From: Anaerolineae bacterium
GTDB taxonomy: Bacteria > Chloroflexota > Anaerolineae > S140-20
DNA length: 63,459 bases
Assembly: GCA_027021705.1 (NCBI GenBank)
Contig: JALUTT010000027.1
Coordinates: 1 to 63,459 of the forward strand
Direction of reading: 5' to 3'
Shown here: one piece after another, positions 23,951 through 33,971 of the stretch
How positions within the stretch are numbered: position 1 is the stretch's first letter
Layout: each line of letters begins with the position of its first letter
Notes under the pieces: model-generated
The model's input: the letters and a program-made list of their open reading frames with translations, nothing else
What the model was told of the DNA's origin: nothing
The model's database searches: none
Position numbers and translations under genes: made by a program

Positions 23951-24493
23951 CTAGCGGCGCAGTGAGTGGCAGCTTAGTGGTGTGGCTGCGATTCCCCAGT
24001 CCTGGAGTTCTTGCACAGCGGCCTCGACCAGTGCGTCGAGCCGGGCAGCGACTATAGGGGAAAGGTCAAGGCCGGGATCCAGCGAGGCGGGTTCCATCCC
24101 CCATAGGACGATGCGGTCGGGGAGGTGGCCCTGGAAGCGGCTCACCGCCAACAGTTCCTGCAGGCCGATCTGGTGCATAGACATCTTGAGGGAGAGCGCC
24201 GCCGGGATCGCCTCGCCTTCCAGCCGTACCAGCGTGCCCGGCGGCTCTCCCGTCTGCACGGCGTCGAGGATGAGCAGGTCGGTGACCCCCTCGAGATAGG
24301 GCAGGAGGTCCAGGCCCATAACGCCACCGTCAATGGCCTGGACCTCCGCCGGCAGACGGTATCGAGCGGTCAGGCACTCCAGGGCCCGGACGCCCAACCC
24401 TTCATCCCGCAGCAGGATGTTGCCCAACCCCAGGATCAGAGTTCGCCGTTGTACGATGCCACGATCAGGCAGGGGACTCCTCCGCACCAGCAC
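23951..24493 (-). CDS. hydrogenase maturation endopeptidase (HyaD/HybD family); exact start uncertain
   Basis: ILGLGNILLRDEGLG, IDGG, LILDAV, SMHQ. Confidence 0.92.
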   Translation of the reverse strand: MLVRRSPLPDRGIVQRRTLILGLGNILLRDEGLGVRALECLTARYRLPAEVQAIDGGVMGLDLLPYLEGVTDLLILDAVQTGEPPGTLVRLEGEAIPAALSLKMSMHQIGLQELLAVSRFQGHLPDRIVLWGMEPASLDPGLDLSPIVAARLDALVEAAVQELQDWGIAATPLSCHSLRR

Positions 24494-25202
24494 TGGTCGG
24501 CGCTGCTTCCTTGACCCTCGACTTCCGCTCGATCCAGTCGGGCTTCTGCTCCAGCGAGATGAACTTGAAGCCGCTGAAGATGCTGGACATCAGCCCGTTG
24601 CCTTCCTCCATATCCACCAGCCAAGCACTGTAGACGTGGTGGATGGCGAAGGCGATGAGCAAGTACATGATCAGGTGGTGGACCAGGCGCACTGTCTGAA
24701 CGCTAACGAGGAGGAAGACCCAGCCAGTCAACGCGCGCCAGATGGAGACGGGATGCAGCCAGCCGTAGAGGGCGAAGCCGGTGAAGACCTGGATGAAGTA
24801 AAGGGTCACGATGATCATATAGGTCATCCCGGCCAGGGCGTTGTGGCCGGCCACCTCGGGGGGTCTCCGACGCAGGAAGAGGTAGTAGCGAATGGCCTCG
24901 ACCATGTTGCGCCGCCCCTCCGCCGTCAGGAAGGGGAAGAGACCCCGCCAACTCGCCCACTCGTTACCCACAAAGGCCCAGTAGGTACGCAGCATCAGAC
25001 TGGCGACGAAGACGAAGGCGACCACCAGGTGGATGTACCGCATCAGCCCCATAAAGTAGGCCCCGTAGGGCTCCCGTGGGCTAATGGCGATGTAGGGGTT
25101 GCTGATGTAGTAGCCTGTGAAGGAGAGAATGACGATGCTGGCCACGTTCACCCAGTGGGTGAGACGGACCGGCACTTCCCAGACGTAGATCCGTCGGCGC
25201 AT
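24465..25202 (-). CDS. Ni/Fe-hydrogenase b-type cytochrome subunit (HyaC/HupC family)
   Basis: YVWEVPVRLTHW, RYIH, GHNALA, RLVHH, IHHVY, SSIFSG. Confidence 0.93.
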   Translation of the reverse strand: MRRRIYVWEVPVRLTHWVNVASIVILSFTGYYISNPYIAISPREPYGAYFMGLMRYIHLVVAFVFVASLMLRTYWAFVGNEWASWRGLFPFLTAEGRRNMVEAIRYYLFLRRRPPEVAGHNALAGMTYMIIVTLYFIQVFTGFALYGWLHPVSIWRALTGWVFLLVSVQTVRLVHHLIMYLLIAFAIHHVYSAWLVDMEEGNGLMSSIFSGFKFISLEQKPDWIERKSRVKEAAPTSAGAEESPA

Positions 25203-25213
25203 ATCCCACCTCC

Positions 25214-26929
25214 TCAGGCTACTTTGACCCGCGTGATCTCGCGCCCATGGCGGTTCACGATGTGCACGGCACAGGCCATGCAGGGGTCAAAGGAGTGAAT
25301 GGTGCGCAGGATCTCCACGGGCCGCTCCGGGTCGGCGACGGGCGTGTCTATCAACGCTGCCTCGTAGGGACCGCGCTGCTCCCGCGCATCCCTGGGCGAT
25401 CCGTTCCAGGTGCTGGGCACTACGGCCTGGTAGTTGACGATCTTTCCACCCTTGATGCGCACCCAGTGACCCAACGCGCCTCGGGGAGCCTCCGTCGAAC
25501 CCCATCCCTCGGCCTCGGCGGGCCAGGTGCTGGGATGCCAGCGCTCTCCATTGTGGATGGCCAGGTCTCCTCGGGAGATGTTGGCGGCCAACTCGTCAAT
25601 CCAGACGCTCAACTGCTCGGCGACCACCAGGGTCTCGATGCCTCGCGCTGCCACCCGCCCCAGGGTCGAGAAGAGGGCTTCCGGCCCGACATCCAGGTGG
25701 TCAAGCACTTGGTGGACCAGCTCGCGCACCCGTTCGTGGCCCGAAGCATAGGCCACCAACATCCGCGCCAGTGGCCCTACCTCCATCGGGGTGTCTTGAT
25801 AGCGAGGAGCCTTGAGCCAGGAGTACTTCTCATCGGTGTTGAGGAACTCGTAGGGCGGCTTGGGGCCGGTGTAGTTGGGCCGGGTCTCCCCCTCCCAGGG
25901 ATGCTTAGCGGTTCCATCTCCCTCGGCATAGCTGTACCAGGAATGGGTGACGTATTCGCGGATCTCCCGGTGGTCCAGGGCCTGGGGCGGATTGCCGATC
26001 TGCTTGTCGAAGATGACGCCCCGGGGCAGCCAAAGGCTGGAGGGGTTCCCGCTGGTGTCCTGGGGATAATCGCCGTAAGCCAGGTAGTTGCCCACGCCGC
26101 CTCCCAGGCCGGCCCACTCCTTGTAGAAGGAGGCGACGGCCAGCAGGTCGGGGATGTAGACCTGGGCGACGAAATCGTGAGCCTGAGCTGCCCAGCGCTT
26201 CAGTTGAGCGATGCGGTGAGCGTTGATAGCGCTCTGGCTGTCGGGGTCTAGAGGCACCGCCATCCCCCCCACCAAGTAAGTCTGCAAGTGGGGGTTCTTG
26301 CCTCCCAGCAGGGCGTGGATCTTGATGATTTCCTTCTGCCAGTCCAGGGCTTCCAGGTAGTGGGCGACGGCCATCAGGTTGGCCGCCGGAGGAAGGGCGT
26401 AGGCTGGGTGGCCCCAGTAGGCGTTGGCGAAGAGGCCCAGCTGCCCCGTCTCGACGAAGGCTTTGAGGCGGTTCTGAACGCCGGCGAAGTAGTCGGCGCT
26501 CGATTTCGGCCAGTCGGAGATGGACTGAGCCAGGTCGGCAGTGTCAGCCGGGTCAGCTTCTAGGGCACTGACGATGTCCACCCAGTCTAGCGCGTGGAGG
26601 TGGTAGAAGTGGATGACGTGGTCCTGAACGTACTGGGCAGCCTCGATAATGTTGCGGATCAAGCGGGCGTTGTCGGGGATCTGAATCTGCAGGGCGTTCT
26701 CAACTGCTCGCACGGAGCAGACGGCATGCACCGTTGTTCAGACGCCTCATATGCGTTGGGCGAAGAGCCAGGCATCGCGGGGGTCACGTCCGCGCAACAC
26801 CAACTCCATCCCCCGGAACATCGTGCTGCTGCTCCAGGCATCCACGACGCGCCCATTCTCCACTTGGACCTCGATGCGTAGATGGCCCTCGATGCGCGTG
26901 ATGGGATCAATCGCGATCTTCTTCGCCAT
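25214..26929 (-). CDS. [NiFe]-hydrogenase large subunit (group-1 type), 571 aa, two in-frame UGA read as Sec61 and Sec64
   Basis: ORFs 26747..26965 and 25214..26731 share one frame. IDPITRIEGHLR...RGRDPRDAWLFAQRI-UGA-GV-UGA-TTVH matches RxCGxC. HFYHLHALDW; C-terminal DPCMACAVH plus 15-aa extension. Confidence 0.9.
26704..26734 (-). promoter_or_regulatory. candidate bacterial SECIS elements: hairpins ACGGU-GCAU-GCCGU (26734-26721) and CUGCUC-CGUGC-GAGCAG (26720-26704)
   Basis: Two adjacent stem-loops just 3' of the UGA codons at 26749-26747 and 26740-26738, each with G in the first two loop positions. Confidence 0.6.
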
Positions 26930-26978
26930 AGGGCTTCCTCCTCTTGCTACGAATTTGCGGATCACGGATCACAGCATC

Positions 26979-27099: not shown

Positions 27100-28224
27100 C
27101 TAGTCGCCGCCGTCGGTCTGGACCGGTGGGCCTTCTTCCTCGTGAGCGGCCAGAGGGTGGCGACGGGCTCGGAAGGCGCTCACCACGCCGTGGGCGGCGA
27201 AGGCGGCCGTGACGCCACCGACGATGCCCAGACCGACCCTGTTGGCCGAGACCTCGACACCAAAGCCCTCGACGTTGGGCAGGCGCTCGTAGAAGGGAGA
27301 CATCGTGTCCCAGAAGCGCGGGGCGAAGCAACCGATGCAACCGTGACCGGCACCGACGGGCCAGTTGGTCCCTTCGTTCCACTGAACGGAAGGGCAGTTG
27401 GAGTAGGTCTGAGGCCCCTTGCATCCCATCTTGTAGAGGCACCAGCCTAGGCGATGGCCTTCGTCTCCCCATTCTTCCACGAAACGGCCGGCGTCGAAAT
27501 GGCCCCGGCGGGGACAGTAGTTGTGGATGATGTGACCGTAGGCGAAGAGAGGACGTCCCATCGAGTCCGTGGCCGGCAGCTCCCCAAAGGTCAGGTAATG
27601 CACGATGACCGCCGTCAGGTTGGCAACGTTCATCGGGCAGCCGGGCATATTGATCAGGTTCTTCAGCCCAGGCACCGCGTCCTTGACGCCCACGGCCCCT
27701 GTGGGGTTCGGTGATGCCGCCGGCCAGCCACCGTCCCAGGCGCAAGCTCCCACAGCGATGGTGACCAAGGCATTGCGGCACACCTCGCGGACGATCTCGA
27801 TGGCGGTACGGCCCCCGATGGTGCAGTAGACCCCACCATCCTTGGTCGGGATCGCGCCCTCGACGATGGCAATGTACTGACCGGGAAACTGCTCTACGGT
27901 GTCCTGGAGCGACTTCTCAGCCATCTGGCCAGCAGGGGCCATAATCGTCTCATGGTAGTTGACCGAGAGCACCTCGAGGACGATGTCAACGACCGTGGGA
28001 TCCGTGGCCCGCAGGAAAGACTCGGTGTTGCCCGCGCAGTCCTGGAACTCCAACCAGACCAGCGGGATCCGGGGAGCGGTGCTCAGGGCTTCAGCGATGC
28101 GTGTGGTGTAACGGGCGGGCAGGGCGAGGGTGGCCGCCATCAGGCCACAGAACCTTAAAAACTGGCGGCGGGTGATGCCGCGTTGGGCCAGATGCCCTTC
28201 GAGACCGGGTGAGGAAGGATCCAT
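27100..28224 (-). CDS. [NiFe]-hydrogenase small subunit, Tat-exported, C-terminal membrane anchor
   Basis: TRRQFLR Tat motif; QDCAGNTES, GACA..GG, PGCP, HNYCPRR, CLYKMGCKGP, NCP...WPVGAGHGCIGC; C-terminal TM. Confidence 0.95.
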   Translation of the reverse strand: MDPSSPGLEGHLAQRGITRRQFLRFCGLMAATLALPARYTTRIAEALSTAPRIPLVWLEFQDCAGNTESFLRATDPTVVDIVLEVLSVNYHETIMAPAGQMAEKSLQDTVEQFPGQYIAIVEGAIPTKDGGVYCTIGGRTAIEIVREVCRNALVTIAVGACAWDGGWPAASPNPTGAVGVKDAVPGLKNLINMPGCPMNVANLTAVIVHYLTFGELPATDSMGRPLFAYGHIIHNYCPRRGHFDAGRFVEEWGDEGHRLGWCLYKMGCKGPQTYSNCPSVQWNEGTNWPVGAGHGCIGCFAPRFWDTMSPFYERLPNVEGFGVEVSANRVGLGIVGGVTAAFAAHGVVSAFRARRHPLAAHEEEGPPVQTDGGD

Positions 28225-28430
28225 AAGCCACCTCCTGTAGTGTAACGCCATGCTGGGAGAGACAAAGGTCCTTACTGCCGATGGAATTGGACAAACCGGG
28301 GGATCGGAAATGACAATGGGGGAAGAGTCACACGCACAACGTAGGATGGGCTTGGAGGCCCCATCTCCTCTCCTTGGCTCCCCCCCTTCCTCCTCTACCC
28401 GATTGGGGGTCGGGTTGTGAGGATAGGTTC

Positions 28431-28479: not shown

Positions 28480-29634
28480 CTAACGCTCCTGAAGGGCTAT
28501 CCGGTAGAGCCGTTGGGTCTCTCGGTCTGGCGGGACCTTGAGCTCCTGCCAGAGGGCATCGGCCAAGCGGCGGTAGTGGGCCACGGCGGTCGCCCGATCG
28601 CCCTGACGTATGGCCAGCCGCATCAGTCGTCGGCCTACCGTCTCCCGGCAGGGATCCATAGCCATCACCCTGAGGTAAAGGCTGATGGCCTCCTGGTCTT
28701 GCTGCTCCTGCTCACACAGACTCCCTAACTCCTCTAGCGCCATCAGGTAGAGCTCTCGCAGCCGTTCCCGCTCCACCCAGCACCAGCGGAGGTCATGGCC
28801 CAGGAGGTCTGCCAGAAAATCCCCCCGGTAGAGGACCAGGGCTTCTCGATAGAGAGCCATCGCTCGACGTGGATTGGACTCCCGCCGGGCCTGCCCCATC
28901 AGGGTCTCGAAGGCAGCCACATCCAACCAGTGACCGGGGCCGTCGTCCAGGTAGTAGCAGTCCCCTTCGTAGCGGATGTAGTGGGAATCGGCCCCTCGCC
29001 GGATAGAAGGCTCCAGGCTCCGGCGCAGGTTGTAGACGGTGGTGTTCAGGTTGCGAAGGGCAGCCGGGTAGTCCAGGTGGGGCCACAACGCCTCGATCAC
29101 CGCATCGCGGTGCACGAGCTGCCCCCGGTGGAGGACCAAAAAGGCCAGCAGTGCCCGTACTTTCGCCCGACGCCAGAGGGGACCATCCACGGTGGACCCG
29201 TCGGCCCGCTGCACTTCCGTCCGCCCTAGGAGACGGATGCGCAGCGAAGGGGGGCAGATCAGCCTCTCCTGAGCCGGTCGGAAGAGGTGCACCAGCGCGG
29301 ACATTTGGTGGCCGTCGGCCTTGGCGGGGACGGCGACGATGCTGACGCTGACCCGCCGGACCGCGCCCGTCCGGCTGTGGATCAGGAGGTCAAAGCAGCG
29401 CACCGGTTTCCGTTGCCGGGCCTGCCCCATGATCGCGCAGCCGACCTTGCAGAGGGGCTTCCCCTCCGAAGTGCGGCCTTTCAGGAGCTCGTGGCAGAGC
29501 TGTCCTACCGCTTCAGACGCGGTATATCCCAGCAGTTCCTCGGCCACCGAATTCCACAGCACGATGCGGTAGTCCGCATCCACGGCCCAGACACCATCCC
29601 CAGTGCATGCGAAGAGACGTGAGATCTCATCCAT
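28480..29634 (-). CDS. PAS + OmpR-type wHTH + BTAD (SARP/AfsR-like) transcriptional regulator
   Basis: PAS: GVWAVD...WNSVAEELLGY; LRIRLLG...ALLAFL...EALWP; LDVAAFE...LYRGDFL...ERERLRELY. Confidence 0.88.
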   Translation of the reverse strand: MDEISRLFACTGDGVWAVDADYRIVLWNSVAEELLGYTASEAVGQLCHELLKGRTSEGKPLCKVGCAIMGQARQRKPVRCFDLLIHSRTGAVRRVSVSIVAVPAKADGHQMSALVHLFRPAQERLICPPSLRIRLLGRTEVQRADGSTVDGPLWRRAKVRALLAFLVLHRGQLVHRDAVIEALWPHLDYPAALRNLNTTVYNLRRSLEPSIRRGADSHYIRYEGDCYYLDDGPGHWLDVAAFETLMGQARRESNPRRAMALYREALVLYRGDFLADLLGHDLRWCWVERERLRELYLMALEELGSLCEQEQQDQEAISLYLRVMAMDPCRETVGRRLMRLAIRQGDRATAVAHYRRLADALWQELKVPPDRETQRLYRIALQER

Positions 29635-33867: not shown

Positions 33868-33875
33868 TCCTGAGG

Positions 33876-33971
33876 CGGGAGTGGATGGGAGTCGAACCCA
33901 CCGTGGCTCGCTCGGTGCGACCCACCAGCGGTTTTGAAGACCGTGGAGCCCACCGGGACTCAACCACTCCC
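33876..33971 (-). tRNA. selC: tRNA-Sec (anticodon UCA)
   Basis: 8-bp acceptor GGGAGTGG/CCACTCCC, 6-bp D-stem with 4-nt loop, CT-TCA-AA loop, long variable arm, 5-bp T-stem with TTCGACT, G discriminator; CCA not encoded. Confidence 0.93.

Follow-up and report, generated by a model that had tools for sequence, protein, structure and literature searches.

UGA codons at both N-terminal nickel-ligand positions of a Group 1 [NiFe] hydrogenase from an Anaerolineae bacterium, predicted to be read as selenocysteine

To our knowledge, the biochemistry of [NiFeSe] hydrogenases has been worked out on a single arrangement, in which selenocysteine (Sec) is the terminal nickel ligand of the C-terminal metal-binding motif. 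In the classical HysAB enzymes of Desulfomicrobium and Desulfovibrio (PDB 1CC1 and 2WPN), a recoded UGA places Sec at the first Cys position of that motif (DPUxxC), giving one selenium ligand to nickel and none in the Ni–Fe bridge. Here we describe a hydrogenase gene that is likewise of Group 1 but arranged differently. It lies in a stretch of 63,459 nucleotides from an Anaerolineae bacterium (the window; the whole of contig JALUTT010000027.1 of assembly GCA_027021705.1, forward strand), and its large-subunit frame has TGC at the classical Sec position and in-frame TGA at both Cys positions of the N-terminal motif, with two selenium atoms predicted in the enzyme, one of them bridging.

N-terminal Sec is known from in silico work on Group 4 hydrogenases, in which Takano, Inoue, Aono, Ochi and Mihara reported UXXU, UXXC and CXXU variants in September 2026 (Front Microbiol, PMC13582414) and called UXXC and UXXU previously unrecognized. 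On the parts of that article drawn on here, those variants share with our locus the replacement of N-terminal CXXC cysteines by Sec (including both at once), evidence that is in silico only, a downstream stem-loop with G at loop position 1 or 2, co-occurrence with Sec genes and a mosaic distribution of Sec and Cys forms; the authors also suggested that a single Sec insertion sequence (SECIS) serves both UGAs. They differ in setting and in frequency. The Group 4 variants belong to cytoplasmic-side multisubunit complexes, whereas the enzyme of the window is a predicted twin-arginine translocation (Tat)-exported Group 1 enzyme with a b-type cytochrome; Sec types make up about 0.2% of Group 4 (47 sequences), whereas here most members of one ortholog clade are of the Sec type; and UXXC accounts for 4 of those 47, compared with none of 401 class genomes and one metagenome contig here.

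For Group 1 itself, PMC13582414 cites Baltazar et al. (Eur J Inorg Chem, 2011) for three sequences with an N-terminal CXXU motif, two of Group 1 and one of Group 3. Those Group 1 sequences carry one Sec, in place of the bridging Cys, a state that at least 60 of the 117 true matches of our global scan share. A review of May 2026 places [NiFeSe] hydrogenases exclusively in sulfate reducers and methanogens (PMC13188914), and the accessible passages of three further papers mention Sec in Chloroflexi for formate dehydrogenases (FDHs) only (PMC3971608, PMC5736913 and PMC4959059). We found no description of UXXU in a Group 1 enzyme in the literature, supplements aside. An initial reading of the window, made by a model from its letters alone (the original prediction), had held that novelty would fall if UxxU enzymes were already described. 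On the cited parts of PMC13582414, this applies in part: UXXU was known in silico for Group 4 and CXXU for two Group 1 sequences, and the Group 1 UXXU form appears to be undescribed.

The same two ligands have also been changed to Sec by engineering in Escherichia coli Hyd-1, a membrane-bound enzyme of Group 1 (Evans et al., PNAS 2021, PMC8020662). The variants in the portions of that paper used here are single substitutions made by UAG suppression, with no double variant among them; C76U and C79U retained 3% and 13% of native activity, respectively; their apparent KM for H2 was lower, and at 10% O2 they were almost inactive.

The large-subunit gene of the window (Table 1) runs on the minus strand from an ATG at 26929 to a stop at 25216–25214, itself a TGA, and is preceded by a ribosome-binding site, GAGGAGG, at 26943–26937. 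As the original prediction had stated, its 571 codons contain no internal stops other than two TGAs, codons 61 and 64, which fall on the two Cys positions of the N-terminal motif RxCGxC (L1) in the stretch CAA CGC ATA TGA GGC GTC TGA ACA ACG GTG CAT; the C-terminal motif (L2) is an ordinary DPCMAC, encoded with TGC and TGT. Read through, L1 becomes RIUGVU, in register with RICGVC of the nearest solved chain, the large subunit of the Allochromatium vinosum membrane-bound [NiFe] hydrogenase (3MYR chain B; 745.6 bits over residues 1–556), in which all motifs align and all four ligands are Cys. The PF00374 match covers residues 39–556 and all 508 of 508 profile positions (E 1.3e-235). The L2 motif is followed by AVH and then by a 15-residue extension past His556, at which alignments to mature solved chains stop; this extension would be removed by the maturation protease. 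Established [NiFe] structures assign the first L1 position to a terminal nickel ligand and the second to a Ni–Fe bridging ligand, and the same assignment is made for Group 4 in the relevant part of PMC13582414.

We propose that this gene belongs to a functional Group 1 uptake hydrogenase operon in which UGA codes for Sec at both N-terminal nickel-ligand positions, and we put the probability of this reading at roughly 0.8. The original prediction of a membrane-bound uptake hydrogenase with two selenium ligands is thus supported at the level of sequence, by the Sec machinery of the genome, the relatives of the gene, its purifying selection and its truncation in databases, each given below; a covarying SECIS-type hairpin, absent from that prediction, adds direct support for Sec.

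Relatives were surveyed in 400 genomes of the same class (Anaerolineae, Chloroflexota) together with that of the window (401; the class sample) and in one genome per prokaryotic species (the global scan). The class tallies include two unpublished genomes (G345 and G388), both with a SelA match and neither with a hydrogenase or UGVC match. A match at E 1e-150 or better was found in 87 of the 401 genomes (86 besides that of the window), the nearest named relative being a Caldilineales metagenome-assembled genome (MAG) at 87% identity. Orthologs of 65–87% identity carry TGA in some cases and TGC or TGT in others, and the tabulation that had been proposed finds this variation at exactly the two L1 positions. 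Counted by hand, the 70 rows of the clade at 65% identity or more comprise 34 with two TGAs, 16 with one, 18 with none and 2 that do not cover L1; TAG is seen in one one-TGA row and one no-TGA row. Far from rare, the form is the majority state of this clade. A paralogous clade at 56–60% identity (26 rows) has TGA in none. Among fetched loci, all 22 of the two-TGA type, which include the window and a 46%-identical paralogue type, have the TGAs at both L1 codons (state UU), and all five of the one-TGA type have it at the second (CU). The global scan listed 120 matches, of which 3 were chance matches in Acinetobacter and 117 were true; among the matches listed, at least 57 read UGVU and at least 60 CGVU. 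By record labels, UU occurs among them in Chloroflexota, Nitrospirota, Methylomirabilota and one record labelled Deltaproteobacteria, and CU also in Thermodesulfobacteriota, Bacillota, Nitrospinota, Rokubacteria, Coriobacteriia and Myxococcales; the Bacillota examples include two loci in Desulforudis sp. Tu-874, whose record is not labelled a MAG. No cultured carrier of UU was identified.

Two loci of the class sample (G167:C705, L167; and G150:C48) have an in-frame TAG besides or instead of TGA, and may be broken copies or reflect alignment overrun.

Downstream of the UGA pair, the mRNA can form a SECIS-type hairpin with a 6-bp stem that begins 17 nucleotides past the second TGA (Table 1). 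Counted from the U of the first UGA, nucleotides 30–35 pair with nucleotides 41–46, and the loop starts 27 nucleotides from the U of the second UGA and 36 from that of the first. The former spacing is what we take, from the usual range of distances, to be canonical for a SECIS. The loop, CGUGC, has G at position 2, as expected from the rule given in PMC13582414, in the portion used here, that one of the first two loop positions is G. An alignment of the window and 105 L1 regions from the TTVH/TSVH clade (the 117 true matches less 11 from other subgroups and 1 that was too short) gave 102 distinct rows. On these, 86.9% of cells were paired, compared with 30–58% when the 3′ partners were slid; five of the six stem pairs change on both sides (U-A, A-U, G-C; G-C, C-G; C-G, U-A; U-A, G-C), the covariation score was reached by none of 500 shuffles, and RNAalifold independently predicts the identical helix. 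Rows that fail the main register mostly form a shifted hairpin in the same place, with loop GGU. Since the SECIS stem is made up of the codons for residues 71 and 75, these two residues co-vary in the protein (C/A, A/G, S/A and A/S), so that here the RNA fold dictates which amino acids are used.

The hairpin also follows the Sec state. Among class orthologs, the complete stem is present in 21 of 21 UU, 5 of 5 CU and none of 10 genes with Cys at both positions (CC). Of nine phylogenetically independent Sec/Cys pairs, 6–7 have the hairpin on the Sec side, none has it on the Cys side and 2–3 show no change (median sign-test p 0.016).

According to the proposed mechanism, SelB with Sec-tRNA(Sec) would bind this single hairpin, which would decode both UGA codons in turn. 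Hyp-dependent metal insertion and then C-terminal cleavage would follow, giving a mature site in which Sec61 is the terminal nickel ligand, Sec64 forms the Ni–Fe bridge, and Cys550 and Cys553 are unchanged. The resulting centre would be Ni(Se)(mu-Se)(S)(mu-S)Fe.

The best-surviving alternative accepts that both UGAs are recoded and gives each its own RNA element: the SECIS-type hairpin for codon 64 and, for codon 61, a small hairpin between the UGA pair and the SECIS (Table 1). The small hairpin is complete in 17 of 21 UU class orthologs and in none of the 5 CU or 10 CC ones, its loop (GCAU) begins with G, and that loop starts 21 nucleotides from the first UGA, much as in an FDH-like gene of the same genome (nucleotide 22). 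Its stem, however, shows a compensatory change in no pair; among the matches listed, all five pairs form in 16 of 56 distinct UGVU sequences and also in 10 of 57 CGVU ones; the association is non-significant across eight independent UU/CU contrasts (median p 0.5); and in many UU sequences the loop is UCAC, which has no G. We thus regard two separate elements as unlikely, and a single hairpin serving both codons as the preferred arrangement.

A third candidate structure, the Nitrospirota-type hairpin over nucleotides 10–23, was rejected; as for the small hairpin, it shows no covariation and its independent contrasts are non-significant.

A more doubtful alternative is that one or both UGAs are read as Cys, by a tRNA-ReC-type or near-cognate tRNA, to give a four-Cys or mono-selenium enzyme. 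This caveat was raised for the Group 4 UXXU genes, whose genomes have more tRNA-ReC (PMC13582414, in the portion used here), and the unusual distance of the first UGA from the hairpin would fit it. Against it, a SelB-type hairpin goes together with the UGA state, and the only UCA-anticodon tRNA found, in searches with ARAGORN and RF01852 of a 5.19-Mb assembly that is 94.9% complete and so leaves the absence of another unproven, has the shape of tRNA-Sec: an 8-bp acceptor stem, a long variable arm and discriminator G. The remaining RF01852 matches are tRNA-Ser or tRNA-Leu, and thus no tRNA-ReC-like second reader of UGA was found. The gene for tRNA-Sec shares its strand with the hydrogenase gene, at a distance of 7 kb. 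The genome further encodes selA, selB and a Sec-type selD, so that a check proposed for selA, selB, selD and hyp genes returned the three sel genes, tRNA-Sec and hypD, the one hyp gene searched for. Four further genes each carry a single in-frame TGA where Sec is known to occur: fdhA, the FDH-like gene, selD itself and an flpD/mvhD-like gene (contigs C56, C5, C41 and C92; loci L188, L189, L003 and L197). Each is followed by a hairpin, whose loop starts at nucleotide 27 from the UGA in fdhA and the flpD-like gene. By these genes the organism is, as judged from its genome, a broad user of Sec. Among class genomes with a TGA-type gene, 44 of 46 have SelA and the other two have SelB and tRNA-Sec; this is a weak test that merely fails to refute Sec, because SelA occurs in 349 of the 401.

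Two internal stops ordinarily mean a pseudogene, and databases list truncated products only, but decay of the gene, or TGAs arising from sequencing or assembly errors, is extremely improbable here. In a check made on Logan contigs (rather than raw reads) of four runs from three studies, one run of which may be the source of the assembly, contigs from the two other studies span both UGAs without any difference there. This excludes an assembly error. The strain in those studies differs at nine positions in the gene, all nine of them synonymous third-position changes and one (codon 48) upstream of the UGAs; a tenth difference, F362Y, occurs in a single short low-depth contig only. Selection on either side of the TGAs is thus purifying, not relaxed, and the 60 upstream codons, the ribosome-binding site and the entire operon are intact. 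The same two TGA codons recur in dozens of species of several phyla. Their presence in all 22 fetched two-TGA loci and in at least 57 species genomes excludes chance; the original prediction had likewise called two independent nonsense mutations at these codons implausible. As far as sequence data show, a pseudogene or an error is already refuted.

Nothing beyond the two codons favours a genetic code in which TGA is a sense codon genome-wide, and this explanation is already refuted, because TGA is the commonest normal stop (1,547 of 2,951 frames of at least 400 codons, outnumbering TAG and TAA), the hydrogenase gene itself ends on TGA directly ahead of the ribosome-binding site of the next gene, and the in-frame TGAs of other genes occur only at known Sec positions.

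Truncation by gene callers, which the original prediction had anticipated as a split gene or a pseudogene call, is evident in a collection of 5.8 billion proteins. The closest proteins there are 505 or 499 amino acids long and cover 87–88% of the query (for example, one of 505 residues at 95% identity, and another at 87%); they are pieces that start after the second TGA and lack the N-terminal metal site. Full-length matches, of 569–571 amino acids, are at most 82% identical.

Several observations weigh against the reading with two Sec residues and one hairpin. The presence of selenium in the product is something we infer from the gene. The hairpin is missing, in both scored registers, from 3 of 54 UU and 13 of 33 CU rows of the tree described below, and other lineages use other structures. 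The first UGA is 9 nucleotides further from the loop than in any of the four other selenoprotein genes of the genome, so that its decoding by the hairpin is deduced rather than shown. A second UGA-reading tRNA might lie on a contig missing from the assembly. Finally, the losses of activity on single Cys-to-Sec substitution in Hyd-1 (PMC8020662, variants as quoted above) mean that a double selenium site is not obviously advantageous. Even so, the properties of those variants fit an anaerobic, high-affinity uptake role by analogy, and a natural enzyme may have compensating changes.

How the form arose was approached with a quick maximum-likelihood tree of 100 large subunits, the sampling of which is biased because the Cys types were drawn from the class sample only. 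It requires at least 18 changes among UU, CU and CC, and a UU row (L102) and a CC row (L165) are supported sisters. The reverse single state, UGVC, is absent from all 401 class genomes. Because the states seen are CC, CU and UU, with UC almost never, the data suggest that Sec would have been fixed first at the bridging position, where the SECIS spacing is canonical, and then at the terminal position. We lean, with some reserve, towards the broader view that a natural Group 1 uptake enzyme with terminal and bridging selenium is the prevailing form of its clade in anaerobic Chloroflexota (Anaerolineae) and Nitrospirota, having arisen in the order Cys-Cys, Cys-Sec, Sec-Sec, with one SECIS serving two UGAs 9 nucleotides apart at loop spacings of 27 and 36 nucleotides.

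UGVC was seen once, as the sole match in a metagenome collection (contig L201, 301–333, minus strand), where QRIUGVC has TGA at the first L1 codon and TGC at the second. That contig keeps the downstream hairpin; either an error or a recent change back from UU may explain it. Much more distant hydrogenase lineages (L022, L122, L155, L071/L119, L083, L086, L053, L087 and L070) have N-terminal Sec codons as well: UU at identities of 46% and 31%, CU in Desulforudis-like Bacillota at about 40%, and CU in one Coriobacteriia record and one Myxococcales record, the latter with a different motif context. These lineages carry other downstream hairpins, which suggests several independent origins.

If this broader view holds, selenium would be needed for much of the H2 oxidation in hydrothermal, subsurface and sediment habitats, and the enzymes responsible would be ones that current annotation cuts short and hydrogenase surveys place in the wrong class. 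Because public protein sets hold fragments of 499–505 amino acids, these genes may be missed or mis-scored, and the selenium need overlooked, in hydrogenase censuses of Anaerolineae, Nitrospirota and other groups and in reconstructions of their metabolism. A natural enzyme with selenium at both N-terminal ligands would provide a new comparison point for the effect of the chalcogen on H2 affinity, catalytic bias and O2 sensitivity, and two UGAs three codons apart with one conserved hairpin would make a test case for the mechanics of SelB and SECIS.

The large subunit is the second of four co-directional genes (Table 1), and the small subunit, cytochrome b and protease genes, described as intact in the original prediction, all match their family profiles. 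The small subunit has a twin-arginine signal, RRQFLRF (TIGR01409, E 7e-4), and a C-terminal hydrophobic anchor, and aligns to solved Group 1 small subunits; the cytochrome b scores 151 bits with TIGR02125, above its cut-off of 121.5. Group 1 membership follows from the Tat signal of the small subunit, the cytochrome b partner and the fact that the top solved matches are all of Group 1. By its gene layout, the operon is that of a periplasm-facing, membrane-bound, quinone-reducing Group 1 [NiFe] uptake hydrogenase. Its partner subunit is a HyaC-type cytochrome b, unlike in the A. vinosum operon, in which the partners are Isp-type. The large subunit reaches none of the NCBIfam equivalog cut-offs (Hyd-2, 636.7 bits against 969; Hyd-1, 634.6 against 1,101; NiFeSe_hydrog, 552.4 against 600), nor that of the HysA model NF045518 (416.7 against 780), and the classical [NiFeSe] enzymes are distant, at about 315–329 bits compared with 745.6 for 3MYR. 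As to Group 4, matches to the NuoD and FpoD models span only about 95 residues, at E 5e-7 to 1e-5.

Table 1. Features of the hydrogenase locus and the tRNA-Sec gene, in window coordinates.
Feature	Position	Strand	Evidence or detail
Hydrogenase maturation endopeptidase, HycI/HyaD family	23951–24493	minus	PF01750, E 7.1e-31
Ni/Fe-hydrogenase b-type cytochrome, HyaC-type; predicted membrane quinone-reducing partner	24465–25202	minus	PF01292, E 8.8e-25
[NiFe]-hydrogenase large subunit, 571 codons with read-through of two UGA	25214–26929	minus	PF00374; alignment to 3MYR_B
L2 motif DPCMAC (Cys550, Cys553), ordinary codons TGC and TGT	25271–25288	minus	
SECIS-type hairpin	26704–26720	minus	Stem CUGCUC/GAGCAG (26720–26715 with 26709–26704), loop CGUGC (26714–26710)
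Small extra hairpin between UGA pair and SECIS; putative role	26721–26734	minus	ACGGU-GCAU-GCCGU
UGA codon 64, second Cys position of RxCGxC	26738–26740	minus	Predicted Sec, Ni–Fe bridging ligand
UGA codon 61, first Cys position of RxCGxC	26747–26749	minus	Predicted Sec, terminal Ni ligand
[NiFe]-hydrogenase small subunit	27100–28251	minus	PF14720; PF01058; TIGR00391, 432 bits
tRNA-Sec, anticodon UCA	33874–33971	minus	ARAGORN; Rfam RF01852, 72.5 bits at 33877–33971

In the small subunit, the proximal Fe–S cluster motif CxGC (residues 72–75; window 28027–28038, minus strand) reads CAGN, so that the second Cys ligand is replaced by Asn in alignments to the small subunits of D. vulgaris and R. 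eutropha. Across 48 loci, this site reads CAGC in 24, CAGN in 9, CTGD in 5, CTGC in 4, CAGD in 3, CTAD in 2 and CTGN in 1, and its C, N or D state shows no tie to the Sec state. Directly upstream of the operon lies a gene for a regulator with PAS, winged-helix and BTAD/TPR domains (window 28480–29634, minus strand), which may regulate the operon.

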